DNA of 64,000 bases from contig OZ025648.1 of assembly GCA_964019335.1 (NCBI GenBank), positions 124,001-188,000 on the forward strand, written 5' to 3'. Position numbers and translations under genes: made by a program. The DNA comes from Diplonema japonicum (Eukaryota > Protista > Euglenozoa: Diplonemea). Below are positions 7,581 through 60,464 of the stretch, piece after piece (the stretch's first letter is position 1; each line of letters starts with the position of its first letter). The notes beneath the pieces were generated by a model. It was not told the DNA's origin, did not search any database, and worked only from the letters and a program-made list of their open reading frames with translations.

Positions 7581-7657
7581 ATTTTACCTAATAAAATAGC
7601 TCATTACGCTGCCATCAACTAGTTTTTAGTCTCGACAATAATATTGTTAAAACAAAA
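7581..7657. repeat. Short dispersed repeat, copy 1
   Basis: 'acgctgccatcaactagtttttagtctcgacaataatattgttaaaacaaa' is nearly identical to 31591-31641. Confidence 0.7.
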
Positions 7658-27048: not shown

Positions 27049-28031
27049 GAACTCCTCTTTCCACGAAGAGGGGAACGGTAACTCCTGCTTTTGTTGAAGC
27101 TTCACTCTTCTCTTTTTCTTTTTATTTGTCTTTTGCTCTTTTTTTTTTTCTTGCTCCCTGTCCTCCCTGATTTGAAAACTTCTCAAGATGGTGGGCATGA
27201 TATGAGTCAAACGAAAAAAAGGGGTAAAGTAAAGTTCATTGAAAGGAAATAAAAACCTAATGGGGGGGAGTTGTGTGGTGGAGGGCAATCTTTCGCTAAT
27301 ATCCTGTAGGAAGGATATGGGGGAAAAAATCTAAGAGAGGTGGATTAATAAAGTACTGGAAACTGAAACTTGAAACAAGGGGAGATATTGCCGGGCCATC
27401 TCAGACCTCCAAGGTGCCGGGGAAAGCCCCTCCGTGCCCTTTTGCTGTTAAATAAAATAACTCTTGTTCCGTCGTGTTTCATCGAATCTCGGTTTGCAGC
27501 TATCAAAAATAAAAGAAAAATTGAGGGACTAGCAATGGGGTTGGGGCCTTACACCTTCCTTCATCTCTTTGGAACAATTTCCTTCGCCCGACGAAAAATA
27601 TGTCCGCATGAAAGAAAAGGGTAAAAGAGAAAGCCACCAGGGGAGGGGCAATAAGTGGGGTACCTTATAAACAATAGTCGCCGTTTTCTACTACAGAAAG
27701 GAAGGAAAGCTTTCTATTCTATCTATGGTCAATGCCGAGGGCAGTGATGTTGGGACGGTCGCTTAAATAGAGTGTGCTCTCGCCGGTGCGGAATCGTATT
27801 CATCATCGGCATCCTGTAAGTTGAAGTTCAAAATGTTTAAAAAAGAAAATGGCTGCTGGGCTATTCCTGTTCACGAGCCACAACACGCCAGTTTCTGTAG
27901 TCTCCGGCAGTGGTTGTAAGAAAAGAAAAGATACAGTGGTGCCCAAAATGTCAATAAATGACGCTCCTGAAGGAAATCAAACCACCAAGTAATGAGGTAC
28001 TACTTTATAATAGATCGGAAAATATTTTCGT

Positions 28032-28550
28032 CCTGCCAATTGAAGGGGTCCCGCTGGGGGGCGGCAGATCGACGACCACGCCCCCTCTCCTGGTCTCCCG
28101 CGCATACAGCCGAGGAGACACCTTCCACATCACTTGTACGGCGTCCTCCCTTCCTTGATCCCTTCCTTACTTGAACGGATGTCGGCCAGGGACCTGCTGG
28201 GGCTGCTTGGGCTGGTTGAGACGAACCCCGGTCCACCTAAGAAGCTCCCACCCCCGAAGCCGAAGGGACTCAGGGTCCTGTCCGGTCACCAGAGGTCCCA
28301 GTTGAGAAAAACGACGAACTGGGGTCAAGGTCCCCGTCCGAGCCACGTAGGTCTACGCGGCTTGGAATTAAAGTAATTCAGCCCTCTTCGGCTGTTCCAA
28401 ACAGGTGCACGGGTTGGCGGAGTCCACAGCTCCATCTGATTGCAGAAGAACTGGTCTTCGCCCTCCCTGTAATATTTCCATGCTTCCCTTCGCCTTTCCC
28501 CTTCCCAGGTGTTGCTCCCCCATGGTGGCACCTATTGGTATTTTGAAGGG
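28032..28550 (+). mobile_element. Diverged, internally deleted copy of retroelement family A (ORF1 end + linker + 2A-like motif + 3' UTR)
   Basis: Encodes 'RDLLGLLGLVETNPGPPKKLPPP'; 3' part homologous to the 33530-33710 3' UTR ('cagccctcttcggctg', 'attggtattttga'); flanked by AAAATATT(T/C)TCG at 28019 and 28552. Confidence 0.85.
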
Positions 28551-28563
28551 AAAAATATTCTCG

Positions 28564-28721
28564 GTACGTATGGATAGTTTAGCGGAAGTTTCAAGGTTAT
28601 CACATTCCTTTCCTTTCCCCCTTTCGTTAGATACAGGGAGACCCTTGGTCCACCTGTTCTGTCCCCCCCCCAGCCTTTGCTTCGCACGTCAGTGGTTCAT
28701 TTATTATTATTTATTATTTGA
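28564..28721 (+). mobile_element. Short (ATT)n-tailed retroelement remnant abutting tRNA-Val
   Basis: Ends 'cagtggttcatttattattatttattattt'; lies between two copies of the tRNA 5'-flank TSD (28552, 28722). Confidence 0.55.
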
Positions 28722-28735
28722 AAAATATTTTCGTA

Positions 28736-28808
28736 GCTCGTGTCGTCTAGTGGTTAGGACGCTCGCCTTACACGCGAGAGATCGTCGGTTCAATCCCGGC
28801 CATGAGTA
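28736..28808 (+). tRNA. tRNA-Val(TAC)
   Basis: Cloverleaf; anticodon arm CTCGC-CT-TAC-AC-GCGAG; T-loop TTCAATC; followed by a T7 terminator. Confidence 0.93.
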
Positions 28809-28829
28809 CTTTTTTTCTTCCCCACAAAC

Positions 28830-30509
28830 CGAAGAGTCAGAGTCCCCACTGCTGTATGTTTCCTCATCTTCTTCGTCGCTCTGTGAATGGTGTTCTGAAA
28901 TTCTTTTGAGTCTTTCATACCAATTCCTCAGGACCTTGAAACCCAAAGGAAGCACGCGTGGGTGCCTCGTCTCCCTCTTTGTATTCAAACCAGTCAGCAT
29001 AGTTCACGAGCATTTCCTGTGATTGTTGTATTTTTTGTTTGTTTGAATTTTTGTTGTTAAGCACCTGCGCCGTGGCACGTTGGTACGGGTCAGGGTGGAG
29101 CATGGGGAGAAGGAAGTTTGCAATTTCGTCGGCCTTTGTCCTCGTGAATTTGTATTTTTCGTGAAGCACCGATGACAGGCCCCAGTATTTCAAGCTGTTT
29201 TGTTTTTGTTTTATTTTATTTTGTTTTTGCAAGCGGTATACTTGGTGATGTGTCGCAACTCCCCGTGTCTTGTGAGGTACTTCTCCCTGAACTTACCGTT
29301 CCCGCGGGACATTCTTGGGGGAAGTGGGCCCAGGAGTTCAATCATAAGCGCAAGGTGGTCTTCGTCTCTGTCGAAGTTGTCACCGGTACGGGGGTCGAAG
29401 AGGAACTCGCCAGTGAGCAGCTCGAAAATAACACAAGCACATGACCAAATGTCAATGGGCGTGCTGTAGCCCTCTCCCAAGATTACCTCAGGCGACCTGT
29501 ATTGCCTGGTTTGCACCTCGTCTGTGAACTGCTTGTATACCCAGCACCCGTTGCCAAAGTCAGCCAGCACCACCTCTTTTCTACGCTGCTCTTCGTACTC
29601 CGGGTCCTCATCAGAGATCTCGTCGTCGTCGACAGGTACGGGCTTCACCGACTGTTCAGGCTGCACCACTTCTTCTTCTTCATCGTCATTCTTTGCTTTG
29701 CTCAGTTTCTTCTTCAGTCTCTTCTTCTGCGCTTTGCTCAACATTGAGGGGTCTTTTTCTGTCAGCAACAGCTGTTTCTCCAAAGGCGGAGGTGTGTACT
29801 TCTCGCATATGCGGCGTATCTTCTTCACAGGATTTGCAAGCAGCACGTTCTCTGGCTTCAGGTCGGTGTGGATAATCTGCAATTCTCTATGCAGGTAATC
29901 AAGACCTATCAGCATCTGCTTTGCAATAGGCTTAATAAGCCTGATTGGGATGCCCTTGTAGCTGTACTTTGTGATGAGCGAGAGCAAGTTCTCGCCGAGG
30001 ACTTTGAAGATCATGACTACGTGCTTGCCGTTAGGGCCCTTGTGCTCGAAGTAGTCGGTCATAGAACAGCAGCATTTTTCGGACAGTGGGTCGCCTTTCA
30101 TAATCTGATCGAGAAGCTTGATTTCGTCGAAGGCAGCCTCGCGGTAGTGCTCTGCGCCCTTCTGGACTTTCATCGCCTTGAAATCTTTGTCCACGTAGTC
30201 CCACACCAGCCACACGGTACTGAAGTAGCCCCACCCAAGTTTGTGTGCTGTTCTGTATCTCTGGTTGTAAATCTCCCCTTCGGCGACAGGGTGGTATCCA
30301 CCCTTCCTGTACTCCTCCTTCCGCTCTTCTTGCGTATCAGAGTAGTCCTCGTCAGTCCGTGAGTCGACGTCGTCGCTGTCATCGTCCTTCTTCTGCTGCT
30401 TCTTTCTCGTTTTCTCCCACGGTTTCGTGTTCCGTCCTTTGTTCTTCCTCGGCTTCCTTCTCCTCAAGGCCGCCGCGACACCCGACGACGCATCCTTCGG
30501 GATAGGCAT
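28830..30509 (-). CDS. SRPK: SR protein kinase (SRPK/Sky1 family), multi-exon; 3' end uncertain
   Basis: 'GGYHPV', 'KLGWGYFSTVWL', 'HTDLKPEN', 'ADFGNGCW', 'QTRQYRSPEV' and 'DEDHLALMIELLG'; short introns near 29190-29240, 29018-29064 and 28881-28920. Confidence 0.92.
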
Positions 30510-30599
30510 CTCTTGCTTTTCCTGGTTAATTGTTTTATTACGGCGAGGTTGCAAGAAGTGAAGGGGGGGGGAAAAGCGTAAATGAAAACTCTTTTTTTT

Positions 30600-31372
30600 T
30601 TAAGAGAACTGTTCGTCATCGTATGTAAGATCTTCGGGTTGATCCCGAGGCCAAGCGAGGATTGGTGTCTTGTCAGTAGGGCGTTGGTTGGGGCTGTTCT
30701 TGATAAATCTAGAAAAGAATGGGTCGTGTAGAAATAAAACCGAACATACTTGGTACACGCACGTACGGTCGCATTGTTCATCTGCAGGACGTTTATCTCG
30801 CAGCGGAGGGCACAGGACCCGAACCTGCGAGCGGAGCAGCAGTCAGGTGAGCCAGCTGATGCAAGGCATAAGAGTTGGTGGGCGTTGATGTCCGGCATGT
30901 TGTGTATGTATTTTTGAAGGATTTTGCGATCTCGCAGCCATCGAACGGTTGGGTTCATTTGGGGTTTCGGGAACATTTCCCTTTCCCAGTCCTCTTCAAA
31001 TTCATGTTCAAGAAGATCTGCCCATATTACAAGAATTTTGCTGACAGTGTTGCCCCAAGGGCAATGCCCGTTGTAGGTTCGACAATTTTGCCACACCTTG
31101 GCCACATCCTCCTTCACCTCTTCTACTGCGCGATATTCATCACAGTCTATGTACGTAAGCACACTCCCGAGGTCCATCGGCTGCTTGATAATCTGATAGT
31201 AGTTGAGCGCCCCATCGCTCATCTCGTCTACAGGCTTCAAAAAAAATATCGCCCTCGGGTCATCATGTATCCTCTTCACCACCTTTCGCGCTGATTGGAA
31301 TAGCTTTGTCAGGTTCTTCCTCTTCCTGCTTCCACTGGGTGGGTACACTCTCCTTATACTTCCATTCTCCAT
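30600..31372 (-). CDS. Bromodomain + ET-like domain protein (BET/GTE-like), 2 exons
   Basis: 'FLKPVD...YYQIIKQPMDL...NCRTYN'; GTATG intron ~30709-30750 gives a C-terminus ending TAA at 30600. Confidence 0.8.
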
Positions 31373-31570
31373 TTCTGCAAAAAAAGAAGAAAAAAAACAC
31401 CACACCCCCAAGTGATGATCCTGAGAGCACACCTTCAAGCCGTCCGGGAAATAAAGAAGAAGAAGAAAAAAAAAAATCAAATTGTTGTGCAAAGCACCGC
31501 GTAAGCACCATAGATGAATCAATAATAATAAGCAAAATTCTAAATTCTGTTCGTGCGCAGCGAGCGGTAT

Positions 31571-31641
31571 TTTTTACCTTAAGCGCATCTACGCTGTCAT
31601 CGACTAGTTTTTAGTCTCGACAATTATATTGTTAAAACAAA
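31571..31641. repeat. Short dispersed repeat, copy 2
   Basis: Matches 7581-7657; followed by (TAA)n. Confidence 0.7.
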
Positions 31642-31757
31642 TAATAATAATAATAATAATAATAATATAAATGAAGAATAAAACGGTTCCATGTTGAAGA
31701 TATTTTCCCTCCCCCTTTTCTTCATTCCCCTCTTTCTATTTCTCTTCTGTTCCTTCG

Positions 31758-32903
31758 TTAAGTAAAATGCAAGCGGAAGCGTCTGTAAAATTTGGTAGCC
31801 AAGAGTGCGTGTGTGTGTGTGGTTACATACGATTTTTGCCGAAATGAGTACCGTGGCTCAGGTTCTTGTTCGATGGGAATCTCATGTTCATTGATGATGT
31901 CTTCTGAGGACTCTCCGTACCAAGTGAGGAGTTCTTTTCCAGGAGGGATGTCACGAATGGCTCGGAGGAAAATCCGGTGGTCGATCTGGATGAACTTACA
32001 ATTCATGACGCCAGGGACCGCGTCGTTTCTCTTAGCCGGGCCCAAGTAGAAATCTGCTGCGTTGATATATCGGAGCCAGCTGGACTCTGAAGCGTCCTCT
32101 GCATCCATGAGAAAACACACTGTGTCATCAGTTCGAGCCATATGCGTGAAATCATTGTCATCCATGATCTGAACGCTGAACAGGTACTGCCCCACCTTCC
32201 CGTTCTTTTTCTCGTGAAGCAATTTGTAGCTTGTGCAAACTTTTCCTCTGTACTCTCCAACCCACTCCCCGCATTTCACTTTTTTCTTTGCGAACATCCC
32301 CTTGAATTCATCCAACCCTTTGAGATCGACAATCTCGCTTCGTTTATATTCAAACCGTTTTTTGTCATATTCTGCAGCGGGTATTTTAGCAGGATTTGCG
32401 AGGATATCGCGTAGGCTCGAGCTTTGTTTCGCCAGTTTTTCGAGTTTTCTCTGTCGCCATTTCAATTGTTCTGGGTACGCTTTGCACGTTACTTGAAGCT
32501 GTTCCTTTGCCTCCCGGTTCAGCTCCCATTCACCATCGCTTGTTTCGGTCATGTTCACAACCATGATGCAGTCTTTGCGCAGAATCTCGCTTCCGTGGGC
32601 TTTTTCAAACAACATATTAAGGCCTCTCCCTACATGACGGCCTTTCAACCACGAAACATCAATCTCGTTGACATGGGGTGGAACCTTCTTTTCGGTCACA
32701 CAGAGCCTGTAAGCACCTGCATCTTCTAAGTGAACTGCAAGTACCAACCCTTCCGTCAATTCATTGTTCCTAAGCATTGCTGTGTGGTACAGCTGGCTAG
32801 GAAACGGGTGTCCCTCGGGAAGCAGTTCCTTGCACCATTCGTCCCAACGTTCCAGTTTCGAAATTTCGTCTTGTTCTTGTCCGTCGTCTCGCTTCCGTTT
32901 CAT
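31758..32903 (-). CDS. SET-domain (PR/SET-like) protein
   Basis: 'GMFAKK..GEWVGEYRG', 'WLRYIN', 'AIRDIPPGKELLTWYG'. Confidence 0.85.
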   Translation of the reverse strand: MKRKRDDGQEQDEISKLERWDEWCKELLPEGHPFPSQLYHTAMLRNNELTEGLVLAVHLEDAGAYRLCVTEKKVPPHVNEIDVSWLKGRHVGRGLNMLFEKAHGSEILRKDCIMVVNMTETSDGEWELNREAKEQLQVTCKAYPEQLKWRQRKLEKLAKQSSSLRDILANPAKIPAAEYDKKRFEYKRSEIVDLKGLDEFKGMFAKKKVKCGEWVGEYRGKVCTSYKLLHEKKNGKVGQYLFSVQIMDDNDFTHMARTDDTVCFLMDAEDASESSWLRYINAADFYLGPAKRNDAVPGVMNCKFIQIDHRIFLRAIRDIPPGKELLTWYGESSEDIINEHEIPIEQEPEPRYSFRQKSYVTTHTHALLATKFYRRFRLHFT

Positions 32904-33226
32904 TTCAAACCCCACCTTTCTTCTGCATTGTTTCTACTTTTTTTCTTTTTTTTTTTCTTTTTTTTTTGTGTCGAACTGTGTTAGCACAATGTACAAAAAA
33001 ACAGCGATGGTTAGCATTGCAGGAGAGGTCGACACATCAATTTGCTCCAATCTCTCTCTCAGAAAGCATGGTTCAAGTAAATAAGTAAAGCAATAAGAAT
33101 AGAAAACAGCCTATTCAATCGGTTTAAACTGCGGTCGAATGTTTGCCTCACCACTCGCCATAATCACATCCATCGCATCGTCGCGATGCAACTCGGCCTG
33201 TCGGGTTTTAATGCAATTTCAAAAAA

Positions 33227-33300
33227 AGGCACCTGAGGGATTTGAACCCTCGACCTCACGCTTACTAGGCGTGCGCTCTAACCAACTGAGCTAAGGCGCC
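33227..33300 (-). tRNA. tRNA-Thr(AGT), copy 1
   Basis: GGCGCCTTAGCTCAGTTGG...CACGC-CT-AGT-AA-GCGTG...GTTCAAATCC; T-run terminator. Confidence 0.95.
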
Positions 33301-33429
33301 ACACGATCGCCGACCGTGTCCCCAACAAATATTATACGAGACTGAGCGACGATTATTAAAGATCAACTGATGATTCTGAAATTCTTTCATCTGTCCCCAA
33401 GATTTACGCCTTCTACGTAGATTAAAAAG

Positions 33430-33501
33430 TTCCGCCACCGGGGTTCGAACCCGGGTCGCCTGGGTGAAGGCCAGGTATACTAACCACTGTACTATAGCGG
33501 A
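33430..33501 (-). tRNA. tRNA-Glu(TTC)
   Basis: TCCGCTATAGTACAGTGG...CCTGG-CC-TTC-AC-CCAGG...GTTCGAACCC. Confidence 0.95.
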
Positions 33502-33954
33502 TACGACGGGCAATTTTTTTTTTTTTTTTCAAAATACCAATGCAGGGCCGCCATGGAGAGCAACACCTGAGAAAAGGGAAAAAAAAGGTGAAGGGAAACC
33601 ATGGGGAAATAGGGAGGGCAATGGACCAGGCTTCTGCAAGCAGGAGGAGCCCTGGTCCCCCACCAACCCGTGCTCTGCTTTGGGACAGCCGAAGAGGGCT
33701 GAATTACATTATTCCCTCAGTCAAGTGAGAGAAAACGGGGGCCTACCTTCCAGCTGGATGTCCTTCTTTGGCTGGAACCTCCGGCGGAAAGCCCCCCAGG
33801 GAGGTATTGCTCCTATTGAGCGAATCATTGGTGAGTGTGAAAATATAAAAAAAGGGGAAATGGGAAACAGTGAGAGGAAGGTGAAGGAAGGGAAAGGAAG
33901 GGAAAGGAAAGTGGAAAACACAACATTTCACTTTACACACACGCGGGCGATCCC

Positions 33955-36900
33955 TTAGCGCAGCACGGGGGCCGCGGGACCGGCGTCAAGAGAGACCGGA
34001 GGAGGGGGCGGCACGTTTGAAGGTGCAGTGACGTCTGTAGACGCCAGGGATGATGGCGAGGTGAACAGTCCGGAGCGTGACCAGGCGAGCAGGCCAGACT
34101 CAACAATGAGGTCGTAGATCTGGGTCACGCGTCTCGACAGGGAGAAGGCTAGGGAGGGAGTACCAGCAGGAGTGTCGATCGCCCCCCTCCCGATCACAGG
34201 GCACCCACCGACAACATGCTCCCTGGACATCGGTGCTGCGTGGCAGGCTGGGCACCGGAGCACACCCTTGTGCTTCCTGTTCGGGCCAGCAGTCTGCAGG
34301 AAGCCGAAGAAGAGAGCCGAGTGACCAATCCGCAGCCGCGAGATGACCGTTTCAGCTTGTCTGGGGAAGCCAAGGGGGAAGTGCGCAGACCGAAGCTCGG
34401 TCGCCACCGCGTAGTTGTGGGCGAGGGATGTTATGAGCTCCGCGGACCTCCGCACCACCCACCGTCGCACCAGGGCTCTCACTGATCGGTAGTCAAGGGA
34501 GGGCCTGTCCTGCTTCCGCTTCGTTCCCTCCCCGGCCAGAGCGTCAGCCTTCTCGTTCCCGTCCACCCCACAGTGGGAGGGCACAAACTGGAGGACCACC
34601 GGTGTCCCCTGCGTGCGCGCCGCGGACACCAGCCGGCTCCACGTCTGGTGGTCGAGCTTCTCCCTCTGTCGCGTTGGGCCAGCTCGCAGCTGCTCGACGA
34701 GGGAGAGGGAGTCGGTGCAGATCGACAGCGGGGACTTCGCCAGCGAAGGGTGTGTTTTTCGGAGGGTAGCCACCATATCCAGCGCCGTTTTCACAGCCAT
34801 GCCCTCTGCCCGAAAAGATGAACAGAAGTCGTTGACGCCATGGCACACAGACACAGGGGTCAGGGGGGGAGGCAGCTGCAGATAAACCCCAGAGCCACCT
34901 TTCGCCTTCTGTCCGACCTGTACAACCGAGCCATCCGTGTAGGCATGGATGCCCGGGGGGAGAGCCGCAAGAGCAGCCTCGGCCGCCTTCCGCCTGTCCG
35001 CGTCTGGCGACGATCGCGTGACCCCGCCGGGGAGGTCAGTCCTGAAGTCGACCATGCCTGTCTGCCACGGGGCCGCCAGGGGCGTAGCCGACAGGTACTC
35101 GAAGTGCACCTTTGGTTCCAACCCGCATCGACGCAGTGCTTGGTAGCCAGAGCGCAGCCACCCACACCCCAGCCTGTTCGCCTGCTTCAGCTTGACCGTC
35201 TCCCTGTGAACCGGGGAAGACTGCCAGCAGAAGGCCTTCGCCGTCATCGTCGCCGCAGCACCCTCCGCCATTCTTTCGAGGGGAAGCAGTCCTGCCTCTG
35301 CTAGGAGCTTGTACCCTCCGGAGCCACTCCAGCAGCCCGTGATCAGCACCGCCGCCTCCTGGTGAAGCCCAGCCAGGTCCTTCCTCCCGACATCATCGAG
35401 CCTGCTGTAGTAGACCCCCATGCAGTAGCGCAGCAGCGGGAGGATGTACGTAACGTAGAGAGACCGCAGAGTGTCCCTCTTGCTGCCCCAGGACGTGCCG
35501 GACAAGAGCTTCAGCACCCTCAGCCTTTTGCTGGCCCGCCGTAGGATGTCCTGTGCGTGTTCACCGAACGTGAGCCCAGAGTCCACCGTAACCCCAAGGT
35601 ACCTCGCGTGTTCAGACAGAGGCAGGGGACGGGCCGCAACGTAATCCACGTCGGGCCGTCGCACGGCTGCATGCATGTCCCGCACGCAGCGGATCCGCAC
35701 ACCACCCGCCTCCACAACCTGAAGGCCCGCCAGCTCCTGGTCCCCGGAGATCGTGCCATCGGCGTTCACCCCCAGGCCGAAGAGTGGGTTCTGGAAGGCA
35801 CCTGGCTGAAGGGGGACTCGTGACGAAGTGAAGTAGACCCCGAGACGTTTCTGGGGGGGGACGCAGACTGCCTGCGTCTTGGACGTGCTCAGCAGCATGT
35901 CACGCTCCCTGCACCAGTCCTCAACCGCATCCACCACTGCCTGCGCCTTCCGCTCCAGCCCAGCCACGTCCCCTTGTCCAGAGGAGATCACAACCGCCAC
36001 GTCGTCGGCGTAGAGCACCGAGACGTCCGCCAGTCCCTCCATCTCCTGGCGAGTTCGTCGACGTAGATGGTGTACAGGATGGGACCCAAGACAGAGCCCT
36101 GGGGGACACCCCGTCGCACCTTCGTCGTCGACCCCCTCGACCGTCCAATCGTGACCGCAGCAGTACGGCCGCATAGAAAGGACCGCGTCCACTCCACGAA
36201 GGGTTCGGGGAGACCCTTCCCTCGCATCTTGTCCAGCAGGGCACCATGGGGCACCAGGTCGAAGGCAGAAGAGAAGTCGAACAGCAGAGCGGCCGAGAGA
36301 CGTCGATCGTCTTTGTTCCTCGACATGCACTCAGTGAGGGTTGCCACCTGCTCCTCCGTGGAGCGGCCGCGTCTGAAACCAGCCTGGCTGTCGTGGAGTC
36401 CCTCGACTCCCGTCCCGTCCGCGTCAAGAAGAAACGTGAGCCTCTCCTCGATCATCCTCTCCAGCAGCTTGCAGAGGCAGCTGGTCAGGCAGATCGGCCG
36501 GTAGGAAGCCAAGAGAGTCGCATCTTTTCCAGGTTTCGGTACCGGGACGATCACTCCCTTCTTCCAGGCACCGGGGACGACACCCATCAGCCAGGAGCGA
36601 TTGAGGAGTAGAAGGAGGACACCGAGGGAGTCCGAGTTCAGGTGTAGGAGCATCTCCGAGAAGATTCCGTCTTCCCCGGCCGCGCTGCGCGTCTTCATCC
36701 TTCTCAGGCCGCGGGTGAGGTCGTCCACGGTGAACGCTTGACACCCGAGTCTGCTTGCAGAAGGAGCGGCGTCCTTCGAGTTCCCGTCACCACGCCTGCC
36801 GTAGAGCTTAGCGAAGTGCGCCCCCAGCCGGTCGGCCTTCGCCTTGTCCGACACAAATCTTCCCTCGAGTACAGGAAGGTGTGTCTTTCGGTGCCTGCCG

Positions 36901-38105
36901 TCCAGCTTCTTCACCGCTCTGAACGCAGCCCCGAGGTCCTTGCTCCGGCTGAGGTCGGCCGCCATCCTTCCCCATGCCTCACGCTTCGTCTCGTCAAGGA
37001 GTCGGTTGACTTCCTTCACCTTCGCCCTGTACTCCTCCACCACCACGTCCGCCTCTTGAAGCAGGAGTTCGCGCAGGGTGTTCCGCTCTTCGAAGGCGTC
37101 CTCGAGCTCAGCAGTCCACCAGGGGGTCGGGCCACGTCGCATCCCACAGAGGGGAATGTGGTCGTTCGCCGCAGTCAAAAGGGCTTGTGTAAACCCCTTC
37201 GTGACAGAGTCAATCGGAGCCGCCGTGTCAACACCAGCAAGCAGGCGGGCAACAGCAGCAGTGTAGTCATCCCATCTGGCTTTTTCGAAATTCCAGGTGG
37301 GGAAGGGGCGCTCCGAACGGTAGACGTCCTCAAGAGGCAGGTGAAAGGATACGGGACTATGATCGGAGCCCCACGTGCCCAGCGTCTTCGGCTCAAGCTT
37401 CGCGCAGCGCCCCACAACCAGGTCCAGAACGTGTCGTGACGAGTCCCTCGTCGGTTCGTTGCGGTCGTTGTAGACGGAGTACCCGTGGGTGTCCAGCCAG
37501 TCCCTGACCACGTTCCCCCTCTCGTTCGGCGTCGTCACCGTGGCGTCCCAGGAGCTGTGGTGAGCATTGAAGTCACCCGCTATGACTGTGTTCTTCCCCA
37601 TGGGAAGGCTGCCAGGCCGCAGGTACTCAGGGTCCCTCGTGCCTCTGCTCGCGCTTACCGGTGTAAGGTAAACGTTGGAGAGAGTGATCGGCTCACGCTT
37701 CTCGCAGGAGATCCTCACATCCAGTCTCTCAGTGACACAGTCCCCAGCCGGGAGTACGTGCGGAACCTCCTCCGAGGCAAGATCGTCGCGGACATACGTG
37801 ACAATACCACCACCCCTCGTCGCAGTGCCGTCAGTCACCGGTGTCAACCGATCCCTCCTGTATGACCTGTACCCAGGCAGGTGTGGCGTGTCGTGCCCTC
37901 CCCTCAGGTGCGTCTCCTGTATCATGATGATGTCCAGCGACAAGAAGTCAGCATGGCGAGATACGACGGTCCATTTCGCAACGAGGCCGTTGCAGTTCCA
38001 CGAGACAACCTTGAGACCCTTAGGCGACGGGGGCGGCAGCTTCTTGGGTGGGCCAGGGTTTGTTTCGACCAGCCCAAGCAGCCCCAGCAGGTCCCTGACG
38101 GACAT
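33955..38105 (-). CDS. Retrotransposon ORF2: 2A-like peptide, APE endonuclease, reverse transcriptase, RNase H, CCHC finger; one frameshift near 36047
   Basis: APE motifs SWNCNG, IQETH, GDFNAH, SDH; RT motifs YRPICL, GVPQGSVLGP, YADD; RNase H motifs YTDGS, CTDS, PSHCGVDGNEKAD; 'CPAC..H....C'. Confidence 0.92.
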
Positions 38106-38246
38106 CCTCCCGAGTAGGGTGGGGATCAGTGCAGAAAAGTCGGTGAAGAAACAGAGAGGTAGGAGTCTCCTGGGGAGGATGCGAGGGAGACTAGGAGAGG
38201 GAGCATGGTCGTAGATCTGCTGCTCCCCCTGTTCTGCGGGGCCCCT

Positions 38247-41000
38247 TCAATTGGATGGACCCATGGAGGCAGAGCGCCCCTTGACCCCATTGGTGAAGAG
38301 ATCTTTGGTCTCCGCGAACGACCTGGCCCGCCCCCTCGTACCCAGGTTCGTCACCGCAGCCTCAGAGGTCGTAGCGAGAGGAGGAGCCCCCTTCTTCCCC
38401 TTCCCCTTCCCTTTCCAGACACTGTCGTGTGTCGTCGTCGCCCCCGGTGTAGGGTCCCGCGGCTCTGCCGTTCCCGTCGTCAGCGTGGCCGCCTGCGGCA
38501 GGAGGAGGCGGAGCGTCGTCCGCAGATCGGAGATCATCTCCTGCTGAGAGTCGATCGTCCTCTGCAGCCCGACGATCGACTCCTTCAGCGTGGCGACGAG
38601 CTCAGTGAGAGCGGCGACCTCAGGCGACCCGGAAGGGACTCCCTCCTTGTTTCCCGCAGACACGTTGCGGGGCGGTGTAGGGGACGTCACAGTGTCGAGC
38701 TGGGGGGGAGCCACCGAGCTCGGTATGGACGCCCACGGGCTGGTGGGAGGAAGCCCAGTTGCTTTCACCGCAGGGCCAGTCTCCGAGGGTGTCGACGCCG
38801 ATACAGGTGCCGGGTCAGGTACAGGTGTAGTAGGCGCAGGTGCAGGTACATGAGAAGATGTGGGTGCCGGGGTCGAGGACGTTGCAAGCGCAGGTGCAGA
38901 TGCAGGTGTCGTCCTGTTGATGAGAGGGGGCGGCTTGACGGTCGGGTGGTCGTCCGCATCACGGAGGCAGACAAGGCGCCCCCCAAGGAGCCACGTCCTG
39001 GACTTCGGGGGCGGGCTGTCGACGACGATGAAGAACACGAGTTGCCTCGTGCCCTGGAACATCGTCTGCGTGCGTCGCAGGACGGAGGATGGTTTCCAAC
39101 CGATGTGGTCCATCACTTCGTCGAAGGCCGCCCTGGTGATGGACGGCGGGGCCCCGGTGAGCAAAAACTTGCGCTTCGTACGCAGTTTTGCGAGGGTTTC
39201 CCGGAGCCGCTGTTCCGTCTCCGGTAGGCACCGCACAGTCCATCCCTTACGGTGCGCCACCCCGAGAGACAACCCACCCAGCGTCCCCGCAATCCGAAAG
39301 GCATCCGCCCTCCCTTCCGCCACGATGGGTACATAAGCGTACCCCCCGCGTCTCTCCGTCGTCCGCATTAAGCACCCGTCCCCGGACCGGCGCAGGACGG
39401 CGTGGACGTGTGCTGCTTGCAGGCGCAGTCCCACCTCGTGGGTCCAGTGCCTCGCCCGCGGTTCCTCCTCACCGAACTTCCTTGGGCGGAAGACCGCACG
39501 ATCCTCCATCACCGCGCCCTGAGCCTTGGCGAGCTCCAGGGCCCTGGCCTTCGCCTCCTTCAGGCTGTCTGCACTGACACAGACGTAGACGACCTCCGAT
39601 CCGCTGTTGAAGGTGGAAGGCGGGGTGTAGGTGGGGGGGTCCAGCCCGAACGTGGAGACGTGGACCCTCCTGTTCACTGCGCGCGACCCAGAGACCATGA
39701 CAATCTCGCTGGGGGTGGTGACACCGGGGACCTCTGTCATAAGGACAAAGGTGATGGATGCCGTAGGTAACGCGGAGCACACGACCCCCATTCCGGAGGG
39801 ATCGTCGAGCGCAATGACAGCGCGGGATGTTTCCGTCGGGGGGGACACGTTGGTGTAGATCGGGGCGTCCCATGTGTCTGGCACCAGGTCCCATCGCGGG
39901 GTTGTGGAAGGGGCAGGGGCAGGGTCGTCCTCCATCTCCTCAGGGCCAGAGCTGGTGTCAGAGTCTGAGCTGAGGAGGAGCGTGCCTTGGTCTGTTGACG
40001 CGTCGGCGGAAGCGTTCGCGACTGCTTCGTCCTCGACCTTCTGGGCATCTGCCTTCTTGGCGGCCGCCAACCTCAAAGCTTCCTCCTTTTTGGCAGCGGC
40101 TGCGGCGGCTTCCTTTTCGGCGGCGGCGGTGGCTGCGACCTTCTTCTTCTCCTCGGCGGCGGCGGCTGCGGCTGCGGTCTCCTTCTCGGCGGCGGCGGCT
40201 GCAGCTTGCTTCCTGGCGGCGTCGGCTGCGGCCTTCCTCTCGGCGGCGGCGGCGGCAGCGGCTTTCTTCTCGGCGGCGGCCTTCTCCTCGGCGGCGGCGG
40301 CGGCTGCTGCTTTCTTCTCGGCGGCGGCGGCGGCTGCGGCTTTCTTCTTCTCGGCTGCAGCGGCTGCGGCTGTAGCCTTCTTCTCCTCGGCTGCTTTCAT
40401 CTCGGCCGCAGCACGCGCAGCCTCCTTCTCCTCTGCCGCAAGTCGTGCAGTAGACCGCTCGCGCAGAGCCTTCTCCTCAGCCTCGACTGCTCTGCGAGCA
40501 GCCTCCACACCAGCCACGCGTGCAGCTTCCGTCTCGGCTGCCATTTTGATAACAGCAGCATCAGCCACCTCCTGCGCAGCCTTCATCTTAGCAGCTATTT
40601 CTGCAGCTACCACGTCGGCCGACTCGCGTGCAGCTTCCAAATCAGCAGCGATTCCCGCGAGTTCGACGTCGGCCGCAGTGCGTGCGGCTTCGAGGGGGTG
40701 TGTGGCGTCAGCTATGTGTGCGGCTTCGGCGGCAGCGTCAGCGCGCGCGGCTCTGGCGGCCTTCCTCCTAGCTTTTTTGCTGGAGGTCGGGGTGGCGACG
40801 CTGGCGTCAGGCGAAACCGGCCTTTTGACGGAGCCGGTCGGGGTGGAGGCGACAGGTGTCGCTGGGCCGGCTGTAGCGGCGGCGGCGGCGGCGTCGGGCG
40901 TGAGGAGGTCAATTACGGTGACCACCCCCGTCATCTTCTCCCGGTGCTCCGGCGTCAGGAGCTGCCCCAGCTCCCCGGCTGCTCCAGCGCTGCGGAGCAT
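38247..41000 (-). CDS. Retrotransposon ORF1 (Ala/Lys/Glu-rich coiled coil, central globular region, Pro-rich linker, C-terminal coiled coil)
   Basis: Long open frame inside the TSD-bounded element. The first in-frame ATG is at 41000; an ATG at 41107 is one base out of frame. Confidence 0.8.
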   Translation of the reverse strand: MLRSAGAAGELGQLLTPEHREKMTGVVTVIDLLTPDAAAAAATAGPATPVASTPTGSVKRPVSPDASVATPTSSKKARRKAARAARADAAAEAAHIADATHPLEAARTAADVELAGIAADLEAARESADVVAAEIAAKMKAAQEVADAAVIKMAAETEAARVAGVEAARRAVEAEEKALRERSTARLAAEEKEAARAAAEMKAAEEKKATAAAAAAEKKKAAAAAAAEKKAAAAAAAEEKAAAEKKAAAAAAAERKAAADAARKQAAAAAAEKETAAAAAAAEEKKKVAATAAAEKEAAAAAAKKEEALRLAAAKKADAQKVEDEAVANASADASTDQGTLLLSSDSDTSSGPEEMEDDPAPAPSTTPRWDLVPDTWDAPIYTNVSPPTETSRAVIALDDPSGMGVVCSALPTASITFVLMTEVPGVTTPSEIVMVSGSRAVNRRVHVSTFGLDPPTYTPPSTFNSGSEVVYVCVSADSLKEAKARALELAKAQGAVMEDRAVFRPRKFGEEEPRARHWTHEVGLRLQAAHVHAVLRRSGDGCLMRTTERRGGYAYVPIVAEGRADAFRIAGTLGGLSLGVAHRKGWTVRCLPETEQRLRETLAKLRTKRKFLLTGAPPSITRAAFDEVMDHIGWKPSSVLRRTQTMFQGTRQLVFFIVVDSPPPKSRTWLLGGRLVCLRDADDHPTVKPPPLINRTTPASAPALATSSTPAPTSSHVPAPAPTTPVPDPAPVSASTPSETGPAVKATGLPPTSPWASIPSSVAPPQLDTVTSPTPPRNVSAGNKEGVPSGSPEVAALTELVATLKESIVGLQRTIDSQQEMISDLRTTLRLLLPQAATLTTGTAEPRDPTPGATTTHDSVWKGKGKGKKGAPPLATTSEAAVTNLGTRGRARSFAETKDLFTNGVKGRSASMGPSN

Positions 41001-41162
41001 CCTCTCCACCCGCCGCTCCTCCCTGGCCTTGGACTGGGCCAGCTGCGTGCTGGCCCCGTTCCCTTCCGGCTTTGCCTTCTCCTTGTGCTTGTCTTTCTTC
41101 TGCCCATTTTTCTTTTCTTTTCTTTTCTTTTCTTTTCTTTTCTTTACCCTACGACGGGCAAT

Positions 41163-41246
41163 TTTCTTTTTTTTTTCTTTTTCAAAATACCAATGCAGGG
41201 CCGCCATGGAGAGCAACACCTGAGAAAAGGGGAAAAAAGGTGAAGG
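41163..41246 (-). mobile_element. Severely 5'-truncated family A copy (3' end only)
   Basis: Nearly identical to 33515-33596; bounded by the tRNA-Glu flank TSD at 41150 and 41247. Confidence 0.85.
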
Positions 41247-41256
41247 GACGGGCAAT

Positions 41257-42022
41257 AATAATAATAATAATATTTGTTCCACTGCCAGTGGGGGAGACAA
41301 AAGGTGGAGAGAAGATAAAGAGGTTTGAAACATCAAAAGTCTGTGTTGCACAGGGTGACATAATTGTGCCTGGCAAATCACAGGGTGAAGCAAGACGGTA
41401 TTCAGTAAGGGGAGTGTGTGTATACTTCCTTTCAGATATTCCATTGTTCCATTCTTTCCTGGTCAAAATCTTCTCCTTTTGTATCGCCTATGGCGCAGTC
41501 AGTCTGCCTCTTGGCCCCCTAGTACATTCCTTCGACTGTCCTGCCCATGGCCACCTTTTTTCCTTTCCCCTGGTAGCGCATCCCCCTCAATAGGAAGGAT
41601 CGTCTTAAGGATTTCGGGGCGACTCTTGCCTTCGACCGGCCCCGAGCCGTCCCCATGCCGGTTTTTGTTTGTCGTTGGGGCTTGAATAGTTTTTCTTGCT
41701 TTCTGTTGTTTATTTATATAGTTTTTTTTCTTTTTTTTTTATTTTTTTTTTCTTTTCAATACACTGTACCGTCTTAAAAGGAGGGAGGGGTTTTTTGGCA
41801 GGGAACGAAAATACACTAGGGGAGGGGAGTGAAGGGAGGATTGTTCGAAGCACTATTTATTCCTTTTTTTTCTTTTTTCTTTTTTTTTTCTTTTTTTTTT
41901 TTTTCTTTTTTTCTTTTTTTTCTCTCATTCATTTCATTTCTTTTCTTTTTTCCCTACTCAACACCTTACTTGTCTCGCTCATGAGCCTAATGCTTTTAAT
42001 AGAGGAAACTCTACCATCCCAA
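41257..42022 (-). mobile_element. (ATT)n-tailed retroelement remnant (family B)
   Basis: 3' end CTGGCAGTGGAACAAATATTATTATT; bounded by TSD copies at 41247-41256 and 42023-42034. Confidence 0.65.
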
Positions 42023-42034
42023 ACGACGGGCAAT

Positions 42035-42560
42035 AATAATAATAATTATTCCACTACCAGGCGGGGGGGGATGGGGGGCGGAGAAAGTTGAAACCATAAA
42101 AATTGGGAAGGGAAGGTTAAAACAGTCTCTCTTACTGAGCCATATCGGGGGGGACCTCTTGCTCGTTTGCTCGACCTCTTGTATATTTTCCTGGGCCCCC
42201 GACATCCACCTTTCTTATTTTTTCCCCATTCCCCCGCCACGCAGCTCTTGGGCCTCGAAGGCTTCGGCTGTCACCAAATAAAGACAACCCCAAATATTAA
42301 AGGACGGCGATGAGATCCCTAATTTTGATTTATCCAGCCACAGGGACCCCACCATCTGCTGGTTTTGTTGGGCTGTGGGAGCCTAAAATATAAATTTGAA
42401 AAGGAAATGTAAAAGGAAAAGTCAAGTTCAGAACTCAACTTCCACAAAGAAGGGAGGAATGCATAACTAGAAAAGGAGCCTGGTAGGGAAAATAAAAAGA
42501 AAGGGAAACCAATGGGGGAGGGGGAAAAAAGAATTACTGGTTACTATTTCTAAAAAAAAA
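42035..42560 (-). mobile_element. Second family B remnant (5' boundary uncertain)
   Basis: 3' end CTGGTAGTGGAATAATTATTATT, nearly the same as 46768-46796. Confidence 0.5.
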
Positions 42561-43858
42561 AACCCCCCTTCTCAGCTGCGAAAGATGTTTTTCCAACGAG
42601 ACTCCCTATCGCGTAATGACGCGGGCGCACCAGGTAGGCCGGCGAGTGCTGTGGAGTCAATCGTCAGCGGGGAGGAAGAGGTTGTGAGAGGCGAAGTAGA
42701 GGAGGGGGACACGTTGGCAGATAACCCACCGGCCTTGGGCTTTCCCCGTGTGCGACAGGTCACACAATGGTGTTCCTTACACCCCTATGCGGTTCTGCCT
42801 GCCTACCCACCAGAAGTCGGACCTTCACCGAGAGACTGTGTCACACAATGGACTTACATCCCTTGAGGTGGTCCACCGTACTTGACGCCTCCGCTCCGAT
42901 TCTCTCTCCGCGGGAACCCAGCCTACAACTCTGGTGGCTGGAGGACCCACTTTGAAATCGAACCCCTCACGTGGAAAACACTGTTGCGCACTCTGGACAT
43001 TTTGCATTAATCTTGTTTTCTGTCGGCAAACAGTGCTCCCCACGCTCAGGCCACTTCGCTCGGGCGTTCAGGTCAGCTTCCCCAGGAAAACCATCAAACG
43101 GCGTCTCCGGATCCGGTCCTCGTTCTGGCGTGCAGGAGGCTTCCCCAGGGGATGCCATCCAACACGGCGCTCCGGCTCCGGCCCTCGGCCGCCCAACGCA
43201 ACACCGTTCCCCTGCTCCTCCTCTCGAGCTGCCTCTCAGCCGCGCAACCTTCACCACCTGCGCGTTGCCCAGGGACCACCACCGTGGAGGTGGGCAGCCA
43301 CCACACACACCGCGTTCGTCTACATGTTCATGTGTGTGTGTAATCGGACCCCTGACGGGCAGATAGAGTTCCACTACCAGGCGGAAGGAGGGGGGATAAT
43401 AATAATAACGGGTGGGTGTCGATTATGGACCTGAATTCCGGTGAAACAGCTTCCCGAGGTGGCTTGCGGCTTTTGCCTTTCCCCCGAAGGATGCTAAATC
43501 CCGTATTGGGCGATACGCTGCTATCACGGCGTCGCGGCGGCCAGGGTGTGGTGAGGTGGAATAGCAACGTCCAGTATTTTGGTCTGGAAGAAACCGGGGG
43601 CTCTGTTGAACCTGTTGCTGCCGGCGGTACTTGAGCTCATAGTTTCTTCCCCGAACGGTCGTTTCGATTCAAAAAAAAACAGCGGAATCTGAATCTTTCC
43701 ATCCCAGAGTACAAAATTTGGCTTGGGTTGGTCCTTAATGGGTTTACACTCGGCACCGAACATGAAGAGCTAGCTACTGGACAACAAATTCTATTTTAAC
43801 CATCCCGGCATTTGACCCCTGACCGGCAAGACCAGCTCCAGGGGACGAGTTCGGCATA

Positions 43859-44377
43859 TTGAAAACCCGGAAGTGGACCATGGTCGTTTTTTATTGGGTC
43901 CTGGAGAGCTGTGTTGCCAACTCCTCCATAATCTGGAAGAAGAGCAGAGAATGTGGCAAAAATTATGGCTTCCCGAGCTTCAAAGAAGAACTTGTTGGAA
44001 AGCTTCTCACCCATGCCCCAAAAACCGATCACACACACCCCCCGACAACACCGTCACCGACCCCCAAGCGCAAACACGCTAGCAATGAGGATTCCCTCAC
44101 TCAGAAATACCCAAAACGTCTCGATTTGACCCTAAATCACACCTCCGAGACCATGATGAACGGAACGAAGGTGAGGAGGGTGCTCTGTGCTGTTCCTGGG
44201 TGCGGGAAGAAGGTGCAAACGTGGTGCCCCTGTTGCAAAACCCCCTTATGCAAAACGTGTTTTTTACTCTTGCATGCTACCCCAGCTGAAAAAAAAACTC
44301 ACAGTTTGCTTTTTCATCCCACAGCCCCAAAAAGTCCCCAGACTGACCTCAATCCTAGAATTCAGGGCACCAAATAG
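43859..44377 (+). pseudogene. piggyBac-like transposase C-terminal fragment
   Basis: 'KWTMVVFYWVLESCVANSSIIW' and Cys-rich tail 'CAVPGC..TWCPCCKTPLCKTCFLLLH'; TTAA at 43796 and 44463. Confidence 0.7.
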
Positions 44378-44567
44378 GGCTGAATGCTGCCCTTTTAGCC
44401 CAGCAGACCCCCCAAAATCGGACATAAAAAGTACACCCTCAACCCCCCTCTTACACACAAAGTTAAGTGTTCTCATCTGAATCTGGCACACGGTGTTCTT
44501 GCTTCACTGTTTCGCCACTCACTTTGACAGCAGCGACCCTCACAGCTCATCAGAGAGTAAGGGAAAA

Positions 44568-44641
44568 AGGCACCTGAGGGATTTGAACCCTCGACCTCAC
44601 GCTTACTAGGCGTGCGCTCTAACCAACTGAGCTAAGGCGCC
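44568..44641 (-). tRNA. tRNA-Thr(AGT), copy 2
   Basis: Identical to 33227-33300. Confidence 0.95.
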
Positions 44642-44675
44642 ACACGATCGCCGGCCGTGTCCCCAACAAATATTA

Positions 44676-45560
44676 TACGAGACTGAGCGACGATTATTAA
44701 AGATCAACTGATGATTCTGAAATTCTTTCACTTGTCCCCACGATTGTGTCTGAGGGTGGACGCGGCGGTCTCGGTCGTGGGTTCGGCTTTCTTGTTGGCC
44801 CTGGGGGCGTGTTTGGCCACAGTGGCAGTGTTGCTGGCCACGGTAGCGGCGTTGGTGGTGTTGGTGGCCTCGTGGGCGCGTTTGGCCGCAGTGGCGGCAT
44901 TAGGTGCCGCGGAGTCGTTGTTAGCCGCAGGGGCTTGGTTGGCTGCAGAGGCAGCATTGGAAGCCACGGTGGCTCTGTTGGCCGCATTGGCGGCGCTGGA
45001 AGCGTTGGGGGCCACAGAGGCATGTTTGGCCGTTGAGGCGGCGTTGGGGGCCACGGAGGCATGAATGGCCGTGGCGGCGGCGTTGATGGTGGCGGTGTTA
45101 TTGGCCACTGGGGCGGCGGTGTTCGTTTCGGTGTCAGGGAGTGGGACCCTCGATGCCATGAGAGATGCATCGTAGGCTGACATGAGGTTCTTAGCCTCAC
45201 CCTTCACCTGCGCTCCGCTTTTCTTTTCCCTCTTCTCTGGGGAGGGGGTGCCGGCTGCCTTGCACTCAGCGCAAAAGAATGCTCCGCACTCCAGGCAGGT
45301 CCACCTCTTCCCGACTCCTGACGTCTCCTGCCCGCAGCCCAGGCATGACCCCGAGGTCTGCCTCTTCTTGGACAGCTGCTTGTGTTCGCAGCTCATCACC
45401 TTACCAGAGGTCTCCCTCGGATGGGCGGTCATCATCCCGCTTCCGTCCTTGTCTTCCATCCTCTCTCTCTCTCTCCCTGTCCTTCGCCTTGTCTTTACCC
45501 CTCCCCCTGTCCCTTTCTCCGTCTTTCGACATGATTGAAGTGTTGTTTTGGTTTTTTTTT
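44676..45560 (-). mobile_element. Insertion upstream of tRNA-Thr carrying a zinc-finger + Ala-rich repeat ORF (gag/ORF1-like)
   Basis: 25-bp direct repeats CCG(G/A)CCGT(G/T)TCCCCAACAAATATTA at 44651-44675 and 45561-45585; ORF 44728.. with 'CLGC..CLECGAFFCAEC'. Confidence 0.65.
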
Positions 45561-45649
45561 CCGACCGTTTCCCCAACAAATATTAAATGAAAAAAAAACA
45601 CCACACAGTAACCAAAGTTGAGGTAACCACTGGGGTAATTAATAAAAAA

Positions 45650-45722
45650 TGGTCGTGACAGGGCTCGAACCTGGGACCGTTGGCTTATTAGACCAATGCT
45701 CTACCGACTGAGCTACACGACC
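45650..45722 (-). tRNA. tRNA-Ile(AAT)
   Basis: GGTCGTGTAGCTCAGTCGG...TTGGT-CT-AAT-AA-GCCAA...GTTCGAGCCC. Confidence 0.95.
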
Positions 45723-45727
45723 GATGC

Positions 45728-45884
45728 TTTTTTTTGCAATAATAAAAACTGGGGGGAAACTGGGGGTGGGGGGAGGGGTGTGGGGTGTGTCCAGTCTGGG
45801 TGTGGAGACCATGCCGGCCCCGTGAGAGGTGGTAAGGGTGAGGTCCATGTCGGGGACTCTGAGGGCAAAGTCCGTGTACACTAC
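45728..45884 (-). mobile_element. Short poly(A)-tailed retroposon abutting tRNA-Ile
   Basis: T-run (poly-A on the minus strand) at 45728; TSD CGACCGATGC at 45718-45727 and 45885-45894. Confidence 0.7.
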
Positions 45885-45902
45885 CGACCGATGCGAAATA
45901 TT

Positions 45903-46745
45903 TTTTTTTTCAAAATACCAATGCAGGGCCGCTATGGAGAGCAACACCTGAGAAAAGGGAAAAAAAGGTGAAGGGAAACCATGGGGAAATAGGGAGGGCA
46001 AAGGACCAGGCTTCTGCAAGCAGGAGGAGCCCTGGTCCCCCACCAACCCGTGCTCTGCTTTGGGACAGCCGAAGAGGGCTGAATTACATTATTCCCTCAG
46101 TCAAGTGAGAGAAAAACGGGGGCCTACCTTCCAGCTGGATGTCCTTCTTTGGCTGGAACCTCCGACGGAAAGCCCCCCAGGGAGGTATTGCTCCTATTGA
46201 GCGAATCATTGGTGAGTGTGAAAAAAAAAAGGGGAAATGGGAAACAGTGAGAGGAAGGGGAAGGAAGGGAAAGGAAAGTGGGAAACACAACATTCCATTT
46301 AACACACACACACGGGGCGATCCCTTAGCGCAGCACGGGGGCCGCGGGACCGGCGTCAAGAGAGACCGGAGGAGGGGGCGGCACGTTTGAAGGTGCAGTG
46401 ACGTCTGTAGACGCCAGGGATGATGGCGAGGTGAACAGTCCGGAGCGTGACCAGGCGAGCAGGCCAGACTCAACAATGAGGTCGTAGATCTGGGTCACGC
46501 GTCTCGACAGGGAGAACGCTAGGGAGGGAGTACCAGCAGGAGTGTCGATCGCCCCCCTCCCGATCACAGGGCACCCACCGACAACATGCTCCCTGGACAT
46601 CGGTGCTGCGTGGCAGGCTGGGCACCGGAGCACACCCTTGTGCTTCCTGTTCGGGCCAGCAGTCTGCAGGAAGCCGAAGAAGAGAGCCGAGTGACCAATC
46701 CGCAGCCGCGAGATGACCGTTTCAGCTTGTCTGGGGAAGCCAATG
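45903..46745 (-). mobile_element. 5'-truncated family A copy (~840 bp)
   Basis: Near-identical to 33515-34372; TSD CCGATGCGAAATATT at 45888-45902 and 46750-46764. Confidence 0.93.
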
Positions 46746-46767
46746 CGACCCGATGCGAAATATTGGG

Positions 46768-49060: not shown

Positions 49061-49948
49061 CTCGGTGTGGTCGAGGGTCGTTTCAGCATGTATGTCACTC
49101 TGCCTTTGTGGTCACCCCTACCTCCAGGTCTTCGAAAGCAGGGTTGTACGACTTGGGGGGGCCCGGCCCTAACAGACCTTACGTCGCCACCACTAACGCC
49201 TTGTCCCGTTTGGACACCCCTATACGTGCGGGGCCGGCCAGGATTTAGCCGCGAGTTGTAGCCACGTCGTACGAGCTTCCTTCGCGCAGAGAGATGACAT
49301 TGCTGTGACCCGTCGTCGTCGTCGTGTATTATTTTTTTTTAATATTTTTTTTTTATTTTTATCCCCTAAACGCCCGCGCGGACGTTTTTGTCCTTATTTC
49401 AAAATTTGCTTTTCGCTAAGTACTTTTTTTTGAACACGGCCCCTGGACTTCAAAATATGGCATTGTTGCGCGGTTTATTTTGTCTTGGAACTACATTTTG
49501 CGTTAAAAGTTTTGTTTTAATTGAAACCGGCAGGGTTCCTTGCACTTTCCTATGGTTACATGCTGCCCTTTTTTTGAGTATTCAAAGCAACAACAAAAAT
49601 GGGGGGAGTACCGTAGATAGGCTCCGGGCGTTTAGGGGTTATCTTTTTTTTTGTTGTTTTTTTTTTTTTTTTTCTCTTGTTCTTTTATGTTCTTTATGTT
49701 TTTTTTTTTTTTTTTTTGTTTTTGTTTTATTATTATTATTATTATTTTTTTTTTTTTGTAGACGAATTGGGGGGTTGGGGTTCTTTTTTCTTTTTTTTTT
49801 CTTTCTCATCTATTGGGATCGGTTTAGACAAAAACGAAATTTATAATTCACACCTTCACATGCACCCACTCCTTTTCTGTTGATGTCTCCTTGAGGATTG
49901 CTTTTGGAATTTGTCGATCCAACTCTGACTCAAACTTAAACACTTCGT

Positions 49949-60422: not shown

Positions 60423-60464
60423 TATTATTAAATATCCCAGGTCTACAACGAGAAAGTTCACAAA

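Follow-up and report, generated by a model that had tools for sequence, protein, structure and literature searches.

A LINE retrotransposon stacked at a fixed position upstream of tRNA genes in the diplonemid Diplonema japonicum

Why should copies of one retrotransposon family lie in front of three different tRNA genes, at the same distance and in the same orientation? We address this question in a 64-kb window of the Diplonema japonicum genome (contig OZ025648.1, positions 124,001 to 188,000; coordinates below are those of the window), a single contig stretch in which a long interspersed nuclear element (LINE), here called family A, occupies three tRNA loci. ARAGORN and Rfam agree on five tRNA genes: tRNA-Val(TAC) (28736-28809, plus strand), tRNA-Thr (start 33300, minus), tRNA-Glu(TTC) (33429-33501, minus), a second tRNA-Thr (start 44641, minus) and tRNA-Ile(AAT) (45650-45722, minus). 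The Val gene is the only plus-strand tRNA in the window, and the protein genes around it are on the minus strand. Neither tRNA-Thr gene has a LINE tail at -13, so three of the five tRNA genes are occupied. These position-specific LINE stacks upstream of tRNA genes are a real feature, in a lineage for which we found no precedent.

The evidence begins with the 3′ end of family A. Its terminal 14-mer, ATTGGTATTTTGAA, occurs four times in the window on either strand with at most one mismatch, ending at 28547 (+), 33528 (-), 41181 (-) and 45909 (-). All four ends lie in stacks upstream of a tRNA gene, co-oriented with it and with the tail toward it, and neither self-BLASTN nor TBLASTN recovered a further family-A copy in the 64 kb. 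The long copy (33515-41149, minus strand, 7.6 kb) is flanked by a 13-nt target-site duplication (TSD), TACGACGGGCAAT, whose inner copy (33502-33514, minus) abuts tRNA-Glu at -13 to -1 and whose outer copy lies at 41150-41162 (minus). At Val the target AAAATATTTTCGT (-14 to -2) stands at 28019-28031 (outer) and 28722-28734 (inner), both plus; at Ile CCGATGCGAAATATT stands at 45888-45902 (inner) and 46750-46764 (outer), both minus, spanning -13 to +2 of the reconstructed site.

Across the four copies, the duplicated targets begin at -13 (Glu, Ile) or -14 (Val), with a leeway of 1-3 nt, A being present there in both tail and target, and end at -1, -4, +2 and -2. The 3′ junction lies about 13-14 nt upstream of the mature tRNA, seen directly for one copy and reconstructed for three. 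Of 5000 randomly drawn position pairs, 4 had a non-simple exact match of at least 13 nt, and this by a rule looser than an exact junction. For the same position to recur at three loci, the rough chance is 5e-10 taken over the whole window and 1e-8 taken over the 21-kb island alone, uncorrected for the choice of this window. TRNA-targeted elements are recognised in PMC5006619 by several copies at a similar distance, which is what all four copies display at the three loci.

A first-pass annotation had described four family-A copies co-oriented with tRNA-Glu, -Ile and -Val, three TSDs, a fixed position and orientation at three tRNA types, and no copy elsewhere in the 64 kb, and all of this is borne out. 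Two of its statements on the copies need narrowing. The copies were said to lie just 5′ of a tRNA, and all four do sit in tRNA-upstream stacks, but only the 7.6-kb copy at Glu touches its tRNA. They were also assigned to one family, which suits the Ile copy (96.6% identical to the long copy), whereas the Val copy, at only about 76%, is an internally deleted member of a sister subfamily, A2.

The stacks themselves record repeated insertion. Outward from tRNA-Glu come the 13-nt target, the long copy (3′ untranslated region (UTR) and poly(A) tail at 33515-33954, by self-BLASTN), a full target copy, an 84-bp 5′-truncated family-A copy (41163-41246, minus; self-BLASTN), which lies behind the long copy and does not adjoin the tRNA, and a 10-nt target copy (41247-41256). 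Farther out, stacked (TTA)n-tailed inserts with family B-type ends fill 41247-43420 (minus): a (TTA)n-tailed insert, a 12-nt target copy (42023-42034), a family-B insert, an 8-nt target copy (43354-43361) and a B-type end. At Ile, a 157-nt poly(A)-tailed insert at -5 of the tRNA (45728-45884, minus) is flanked by a 10-nt duplication (-5 to +5; 45718-45727 and 45885-45894, minus). Beyond it are the target, the 841-nt 5′-truncated family-A copy (45903-46743, minus; self-BLASTN), the -13 to +2 target copy and a family-B LINE remnant with a (TTA)n tail, a 3′ UTR and broken reverse transcriptase (RT) and RNase H (46770-49110, minus). The Val stack runs from the inner target through a 155-nt non-coding insert with a (TTA)n tail (28566-28720, plus), a degenerate middle target (28551-28565, plus) and the A2 copy (28032-28547, plus) to the outer target. 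In the A2 copy the ORF1 stop, linker and ORF2 start (ORF, open reading frame) are fused to the 3′ UTR, with 75% identity to 38260-38008 and 76-77% to the long-copy 3′ UTR.

A second LINE family (B) and short elements occupy the same stacks as family A. The end of the 155-nt Val insert resembles that of the insert at 41257 over a 29-nt local alignment. At both Glu and Ile, near-intact family A sits inside decayed family B, which fits new inserts arriving beside the tRNA. TGCCC follows the family-B tail at both loci. Should this be the true terminus of family B, the family-A cut at Glu would have fallen within the tail of a different element, again at the usual distance. A 29-nt match (93%) also joins 44513-44541, downstream of the second tRNA-Thr, to 48090-48118 in the family-B RT remnant.

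What kind of element is this? Family A is a two-ORF LINE retrotransposon encoding an apurinic endonuclease-type nuclease (APE), RT and RNase H, domain matches confirming the APE-RT-RNase H content first proposed for it. ORF2 (33955-38105, minus; Pfam, TBLASTN) has a 2A-like N-terminus, APE, RT, RNase H and a C-terminal Cys motif, with APE and RT in one frame (PF03372/PF14529 and PF00078); in the window copy it carries one frame break, in RT. ORF1 (38250-41105, minus; about 951 aa) consists of Ala/Lys/Glu-rich repeats and a central domain of no known family. It has a frame break at its start in the window copy, and is recorded as the 951-aa protein P0281 (99% identity). Its UGA stop is in frame with ORF2, and the linker is open in both subfamilies (38106-38249, minus; 28032-28200, plus). 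Directly after the stop, a two-sequence fold predicts a hairpin with two compensatory pairs, which would be weak evidence of readthrough. The linker leads into a non-standard 2A-like peptide, GLVETNPGP.

ORF1 has no relative beyond P0281 among 1.84 billion representatives, a single-sequence structure model of its centre reached a pLDDT of 33.5, and Atlas returned RRM-like leads only, all scoring below 0.9. The long copy opens with about 43 nt of (AGAAA)n (41106-41149, minus), where it may be slightly truncated and where no ribozyme was matched by Rfam; Rfam likewise gave no snRNA or ribozyme in 26000-50000. The hallmarks of APE-type non-LTR (non-long-terminal-repeat) elements are present, namely a 3′ tail, variable TSDs and 5′-truncated copies, the Val copy being without poly(A).

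An intact ORF2 (P0001, 1383 aa) is recorded for D. japonicum in EukProt, from a transcriptome, and the window ORF2 is 99.6% identical to it over residues 1-688, supporting the diplonemid origin that had been proposed; two of four host proteins looked up from the window also have exact EukProt matches. The closest RTs among the matches listed belong to D. ambulator (53-55%) and Flectonema neradi (41-46%). With these the family-A RT forms one group (SH-aLRT 98) in a 68-row quick tree whose deep nodes are unresolved. Family B falls outside that group in the 68-row tree and inside it (support 81) in a 27-row quick tree with most long branches removed; the two trees disagree, and family B may belong there.

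Kinship with Ingi is less clear. The next-best RT matches by score are elements with a single ORF, of which many carry a 2A motif and some a PHD finger, a layout that the available part of PMC3708506 describes for Ingi-type and other 2A elements. There the Ingi clade has a single ORF and no ORF1. The Diplonema element shares its APE-RT-RNase H order, and adds a separate ORF1; the Ingi motif is GD(V/I)ExNPGP, against GLVETNPGP here, without the D, and GDVHxNPGP in the D. ambulator relatives. With a 951-aa ORF1, no Pr77-type 5′ end seen, and no labelled Ingi/L1Tc reference among the matches listed for the RT trees, the "Ingi/I-group-like" label of the first-pass annotation is not established.

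How, then, does the element find its place? We consider it probable that targeting is position-specific and that the RNA polymerase III (Pol III) initiation complex does the positioning. As with Ty3 and TRE5-A, the ribonucleoprotein would be positioned by the Pol III initiation machinery, and contact between ORF1 and TFIIIB is a candidate route, modelled on TRE5-A. The endonuclease would make its first nick in the template strand of the tRNA gene, about 13-14 nt short of the mature tRNA and close to the position at which yeast begins tRNA transcription. One to four T at the 3′ end so released could pair with the poly(A) tail and prime reverse transcription, and a second nick would follow between -4 and +2, near the first tRNA base. 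The gene would survive insertion and be hit again, older inserts being pushed outward into a stack; because its promoter is internal, it would stay active and re-targetable. A local preference for a T-ended primer is likely a secondary determinant. More tentatively, and with rather more doubt than belief, we speculate about a diplonemid-specific RNase H LINE clade, its orphan ORF1 linked to ORF2 by a leaky UGA and a 2A-like peptide, in which tethering to the Pol III initiation complex arose independently. Such elements would nick the template at the transcription start (the Ty3 position), and several sister families and short passengers would use the same slot at a large share of the tRNA genes in this host.

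The strongest competitor to positioning by Pol III, though we think it unlikely, is that the endonuclease reads a short host motif, AATATTT..TCG(T/C)A, present before many tRNA genes, in the manner of R1 or Tx1 and with no tether. The targets had been said to share little sequence. That holds for Glu, whose target ATTGCCCGTCGTA has only its last 5 nt in common with the others, but AATATTT(T)CG is common to Val and Ile, and TCG(T/C)A closes all three targets. Neither window tRNA-Thr gene, moreover, has the motif at the corresponding place, and neither is occupied there. No single conserved target sequence is found at all insertions, as it is for R1/Tx1, and the same position is used by two families with different tails. 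The duplicated Glu copies all begin between -13 and -11, so this target is used repeatedly yet lacks the Val/Ile motif, which favours position as the main determinant. In contigs from public sequencing runs, another tRNA-Glu has AAAAATATTTCGTA before +1 and no tail in 35 readable nt. A motif in front of an apparently empty gene belongs to the host, and an unoccupied motif is awkward for its being the signal. A TCG(T/C)A-like motif, often after AATATT, stands just before +1 of several tRNA genes in the window and the run contigs, and is possibly a host Pol III start-site element.

Somewhat less probable again is that active targeting plays no part: the accessible, A/T-rich DNA where tRNA genes begin would simply be easy to nick, and inserts elsewhere would have been purged or lie in repeat regions beyond the window. 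Unrelated mobile debris does lie in the region (43823-44377, 44728-45582), a loose preference for T-rich nick sites fits all the junctions, and the comparison is confined to this window. Accessibility alone would nevertheless hardly produce junctions placed to within 1-3 nt, a strict orientation and several insertions at the same site, and no family-A end lies in the window's many A/T-rich intergenic tracts. That the stacks are artefacts of assembly or tandem duplication is very improbable: the long copy has two frame breaks where database proteins are intact and no listed contig spans a whole insert, but the inserts are not alike and are truncated at different points. Run X3 also has contigs across Thr-Glu and Glu-TSD, and the second Thr flank is present in contigs of both X3 and X8, although the runs may include the source of the assembly.

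Several observations weigh against positioning by Pol III and should be set beside it. The evidence comes from one window and three loci. At Ile and Val, either order of insertion relative to the inner insert leaves the same sequence, so that the original distance is reconstructed, and if family A arrived after the short insert it may have landed about 160 nt from the tRNA. ORF1 has no outside relative, and hence nothing ties it to the ORF1 of TRE5-A. The Val/Ile motif also precedes the apparently empty tRNA-Glu. Finally, a family-A end appears in none of six other tRNA 5′ flanks (two Thr, four Glu) among the run matches listed, although their 30 letters each could show only short-tailed copies. 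Both Thr flanks and one Glu flank have no tail; a second Glu has a run of ten A at about -6 to -15 with unrelated sequence beyond, a third has 19 A from about -7 to the contig end, and the fourth is an unresolved mixture. A consensus of two contigs hints at an (AAT)n tail some 16 nt upstream of a further tRNA-Glu, but this depends on a guess at how ties are resolved, and is not counted as evidence.

The public runs add some scale. Part of the stretch is contained in 20 of 24 listed runs, none recorded as RNA, and their contigs seem to be cut at poly(T). One 65-nt contig of X3, a run from which the assembly may derive, spans 33477-33517, from tRNA-Glu into the TSD, and continues for 24 nt at depth 75, against about 99 for unique contigs nearby. 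Family-A contigs in X3 reach depths of 7948-9600, which hints at some 80-100 copies if X3 is genomic DNA, though depth is not a copy number. The family-A 3′ motif has no exact match in metagenome_contigs, and ARAGORN found a tRNA at none of 80 distant LINE loci (21-35% identity, 1/64 parts scanned), an uninformative result as the loci are mostly short.

Other features of the window deserve brief mention. A 182-nt duplication (98%) at 33223-33404 and 44564-44745 comprises tRNA-Thr and 104 nt of upstream flank, and a 25-nt piece of that flank (-34 to -10) recurs at 45561-45585, bracketing an ORF; run contigs show both arrangements. Upstream of the second tRNA-Thr, 44728-45582 (minus) holds a 284-aa frame with a Cys-rich finger (weak FYVE match) and Ala/Asn-rich repeats, which may be the ORF1 start of another LINE. 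At 43823-44377 (plus), a frame with only a weak B-box match in Pfam ends in a Cys cluster that we take to resemble a piggyBac transposase C-terminus. A further frame, 62073-63017 (minus), reads as a retroelement C-terminal remnant with no Pfam match. Dispersed repeats with no tRNA gene nearby pair 16019-16452 with 59992-60429, 7561-7677 with 31548-31662, and 57444-57526 with 63918-64000. An SRPK-like kinase gene has an apparent short GT-AG intron, read by eye, at 29193-29240, and an assembly gap of 200 N (10804-11003) falls outside the LINE/tRNA region.

Is such an element new? It had been put forward as not known to be described in Euglenozoa, and our literature searches agree, finding no report of tRNA-targeted elements there, with subscription journals and Repbase outside their reach. 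The accessible portions of the D. papillatum genome paper, a mobilome survey of 57 trypanosomatid genomes, an L1Tc review, the Phytomonas genome, and papers on Leishmania Bdp1 and diplonemid introns mention no tRNA-targeted element, and the text files among the D. papillatum supplements contain no "tRNA genes", Ingi, Brf1, Bdp1 or TFIIIC. Positional targeting of tRNA genes is documented in yeasts and dictyostelids, and a case in Discoba would make a third deep lineage for convergence, in a host whose Pol II transcription is polycistronic and whose general transcription factors are divergent. Nicking at the Ty3 position by a LINE with its tail toward the tRNA would be a geometry absent from the available part of a 2018 review table. 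With an intact, transcribed ORF2 on record, positioning of a LINE endonuclease by host factor or by sequence is directly testable, and the element is a candidate tool for gene insertion at safe sites.

Known systems resemble the Diplonema element in part, and are described here from the accessible portions of their sources. Ingi and L1Tc of trypanosomatids are likewise euglenozoan elements with the APE-RT-RNase H order, a poly(A) tail and TSDs; they too have short deleted derivatives and an N-terminal peptide of 2A type, the one in Diplonema being non-standard. They have a single ORF and a Pr77 promoter/ribozyme, against two ORFs here and, in a copy that may be slightly truncated, no such 5′ end seen. 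No tRNA targeting is mentioned for them, "tRNA" having 0 occurrences in the available text of PMC5814959. The sequence-specific non-LTR elements Dewa, NeSL-1_TV, LIN15_SM and LIN25_SM each lie at one tRNA type or spacer (PMC3706591, PMC4640811). In Diplonema, by contrast, one family group is found at three tRNA types.

TRE5-A of Dictyostelium discoideum inserts with its 5′ end facing the tRNA, an orientation opposite to that of the Diplonema element, whose tail faces it. It is a LINE lying 40-54 bp upstream of tRNA genes, with a zinc finger and not RNase H (PMC5911963), and it needs an intact B box, its ORF1 binding TFIIIB subunits in vitro (PMC5006619). Ty3 of Saccharomyces cerevisiae and DGLT-A of dictyostelids insert 1-4 bp ahead of the site where Pol III starts, which is about 15 bp short of the mature tRNA; Ty3 integrase binds TFIIIB (PMC5006619, PMC5911963). 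These are LTR elements with an integrase, whereas the Diplonema element would use target-primed reverse transcription and keeps a single orientation in four of four copies.

As precedents, the first-pass annotation named Ty1/Ty3 and TRE, but missed the closest, the RNase H-bearing NLTR-A and NLTR-B (PMC5006619). Dp_NLTR-A of Dictyostelium purpureum encodes APE, RT and RNase H in two ORFs over 7438 bp (PMC5006619, PMC5911963) and lies 2-6 bp upstream of tRNA genes in 16 measured copies (PMC5006619); Pp_NLTR-B of Polysphondylium pallidum has the same three domains and lies 39-64 bp upstream (PMC5006619, PMC5911963). Both are like the Diplonema element in combining APE-RT-RNase H with a fixed distance upstream of tRNA genes, and stacking at one gene has been noted. 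They are likened by description, NLTR sequences not being among the matches listed. The distances differ from the roughly 13-14 nt in Diplonema (the short Ile insert lies at -5), the ORFs of NLTR-A overlap by 13 bp whereas those in Diplonema are in frame across a UGA, and the hosts are Amoebozoa against Discoba. In architecture, the closest known counterpart of this design is Dp_NLTR-A; in position, it is Ty3/DGLT-A.

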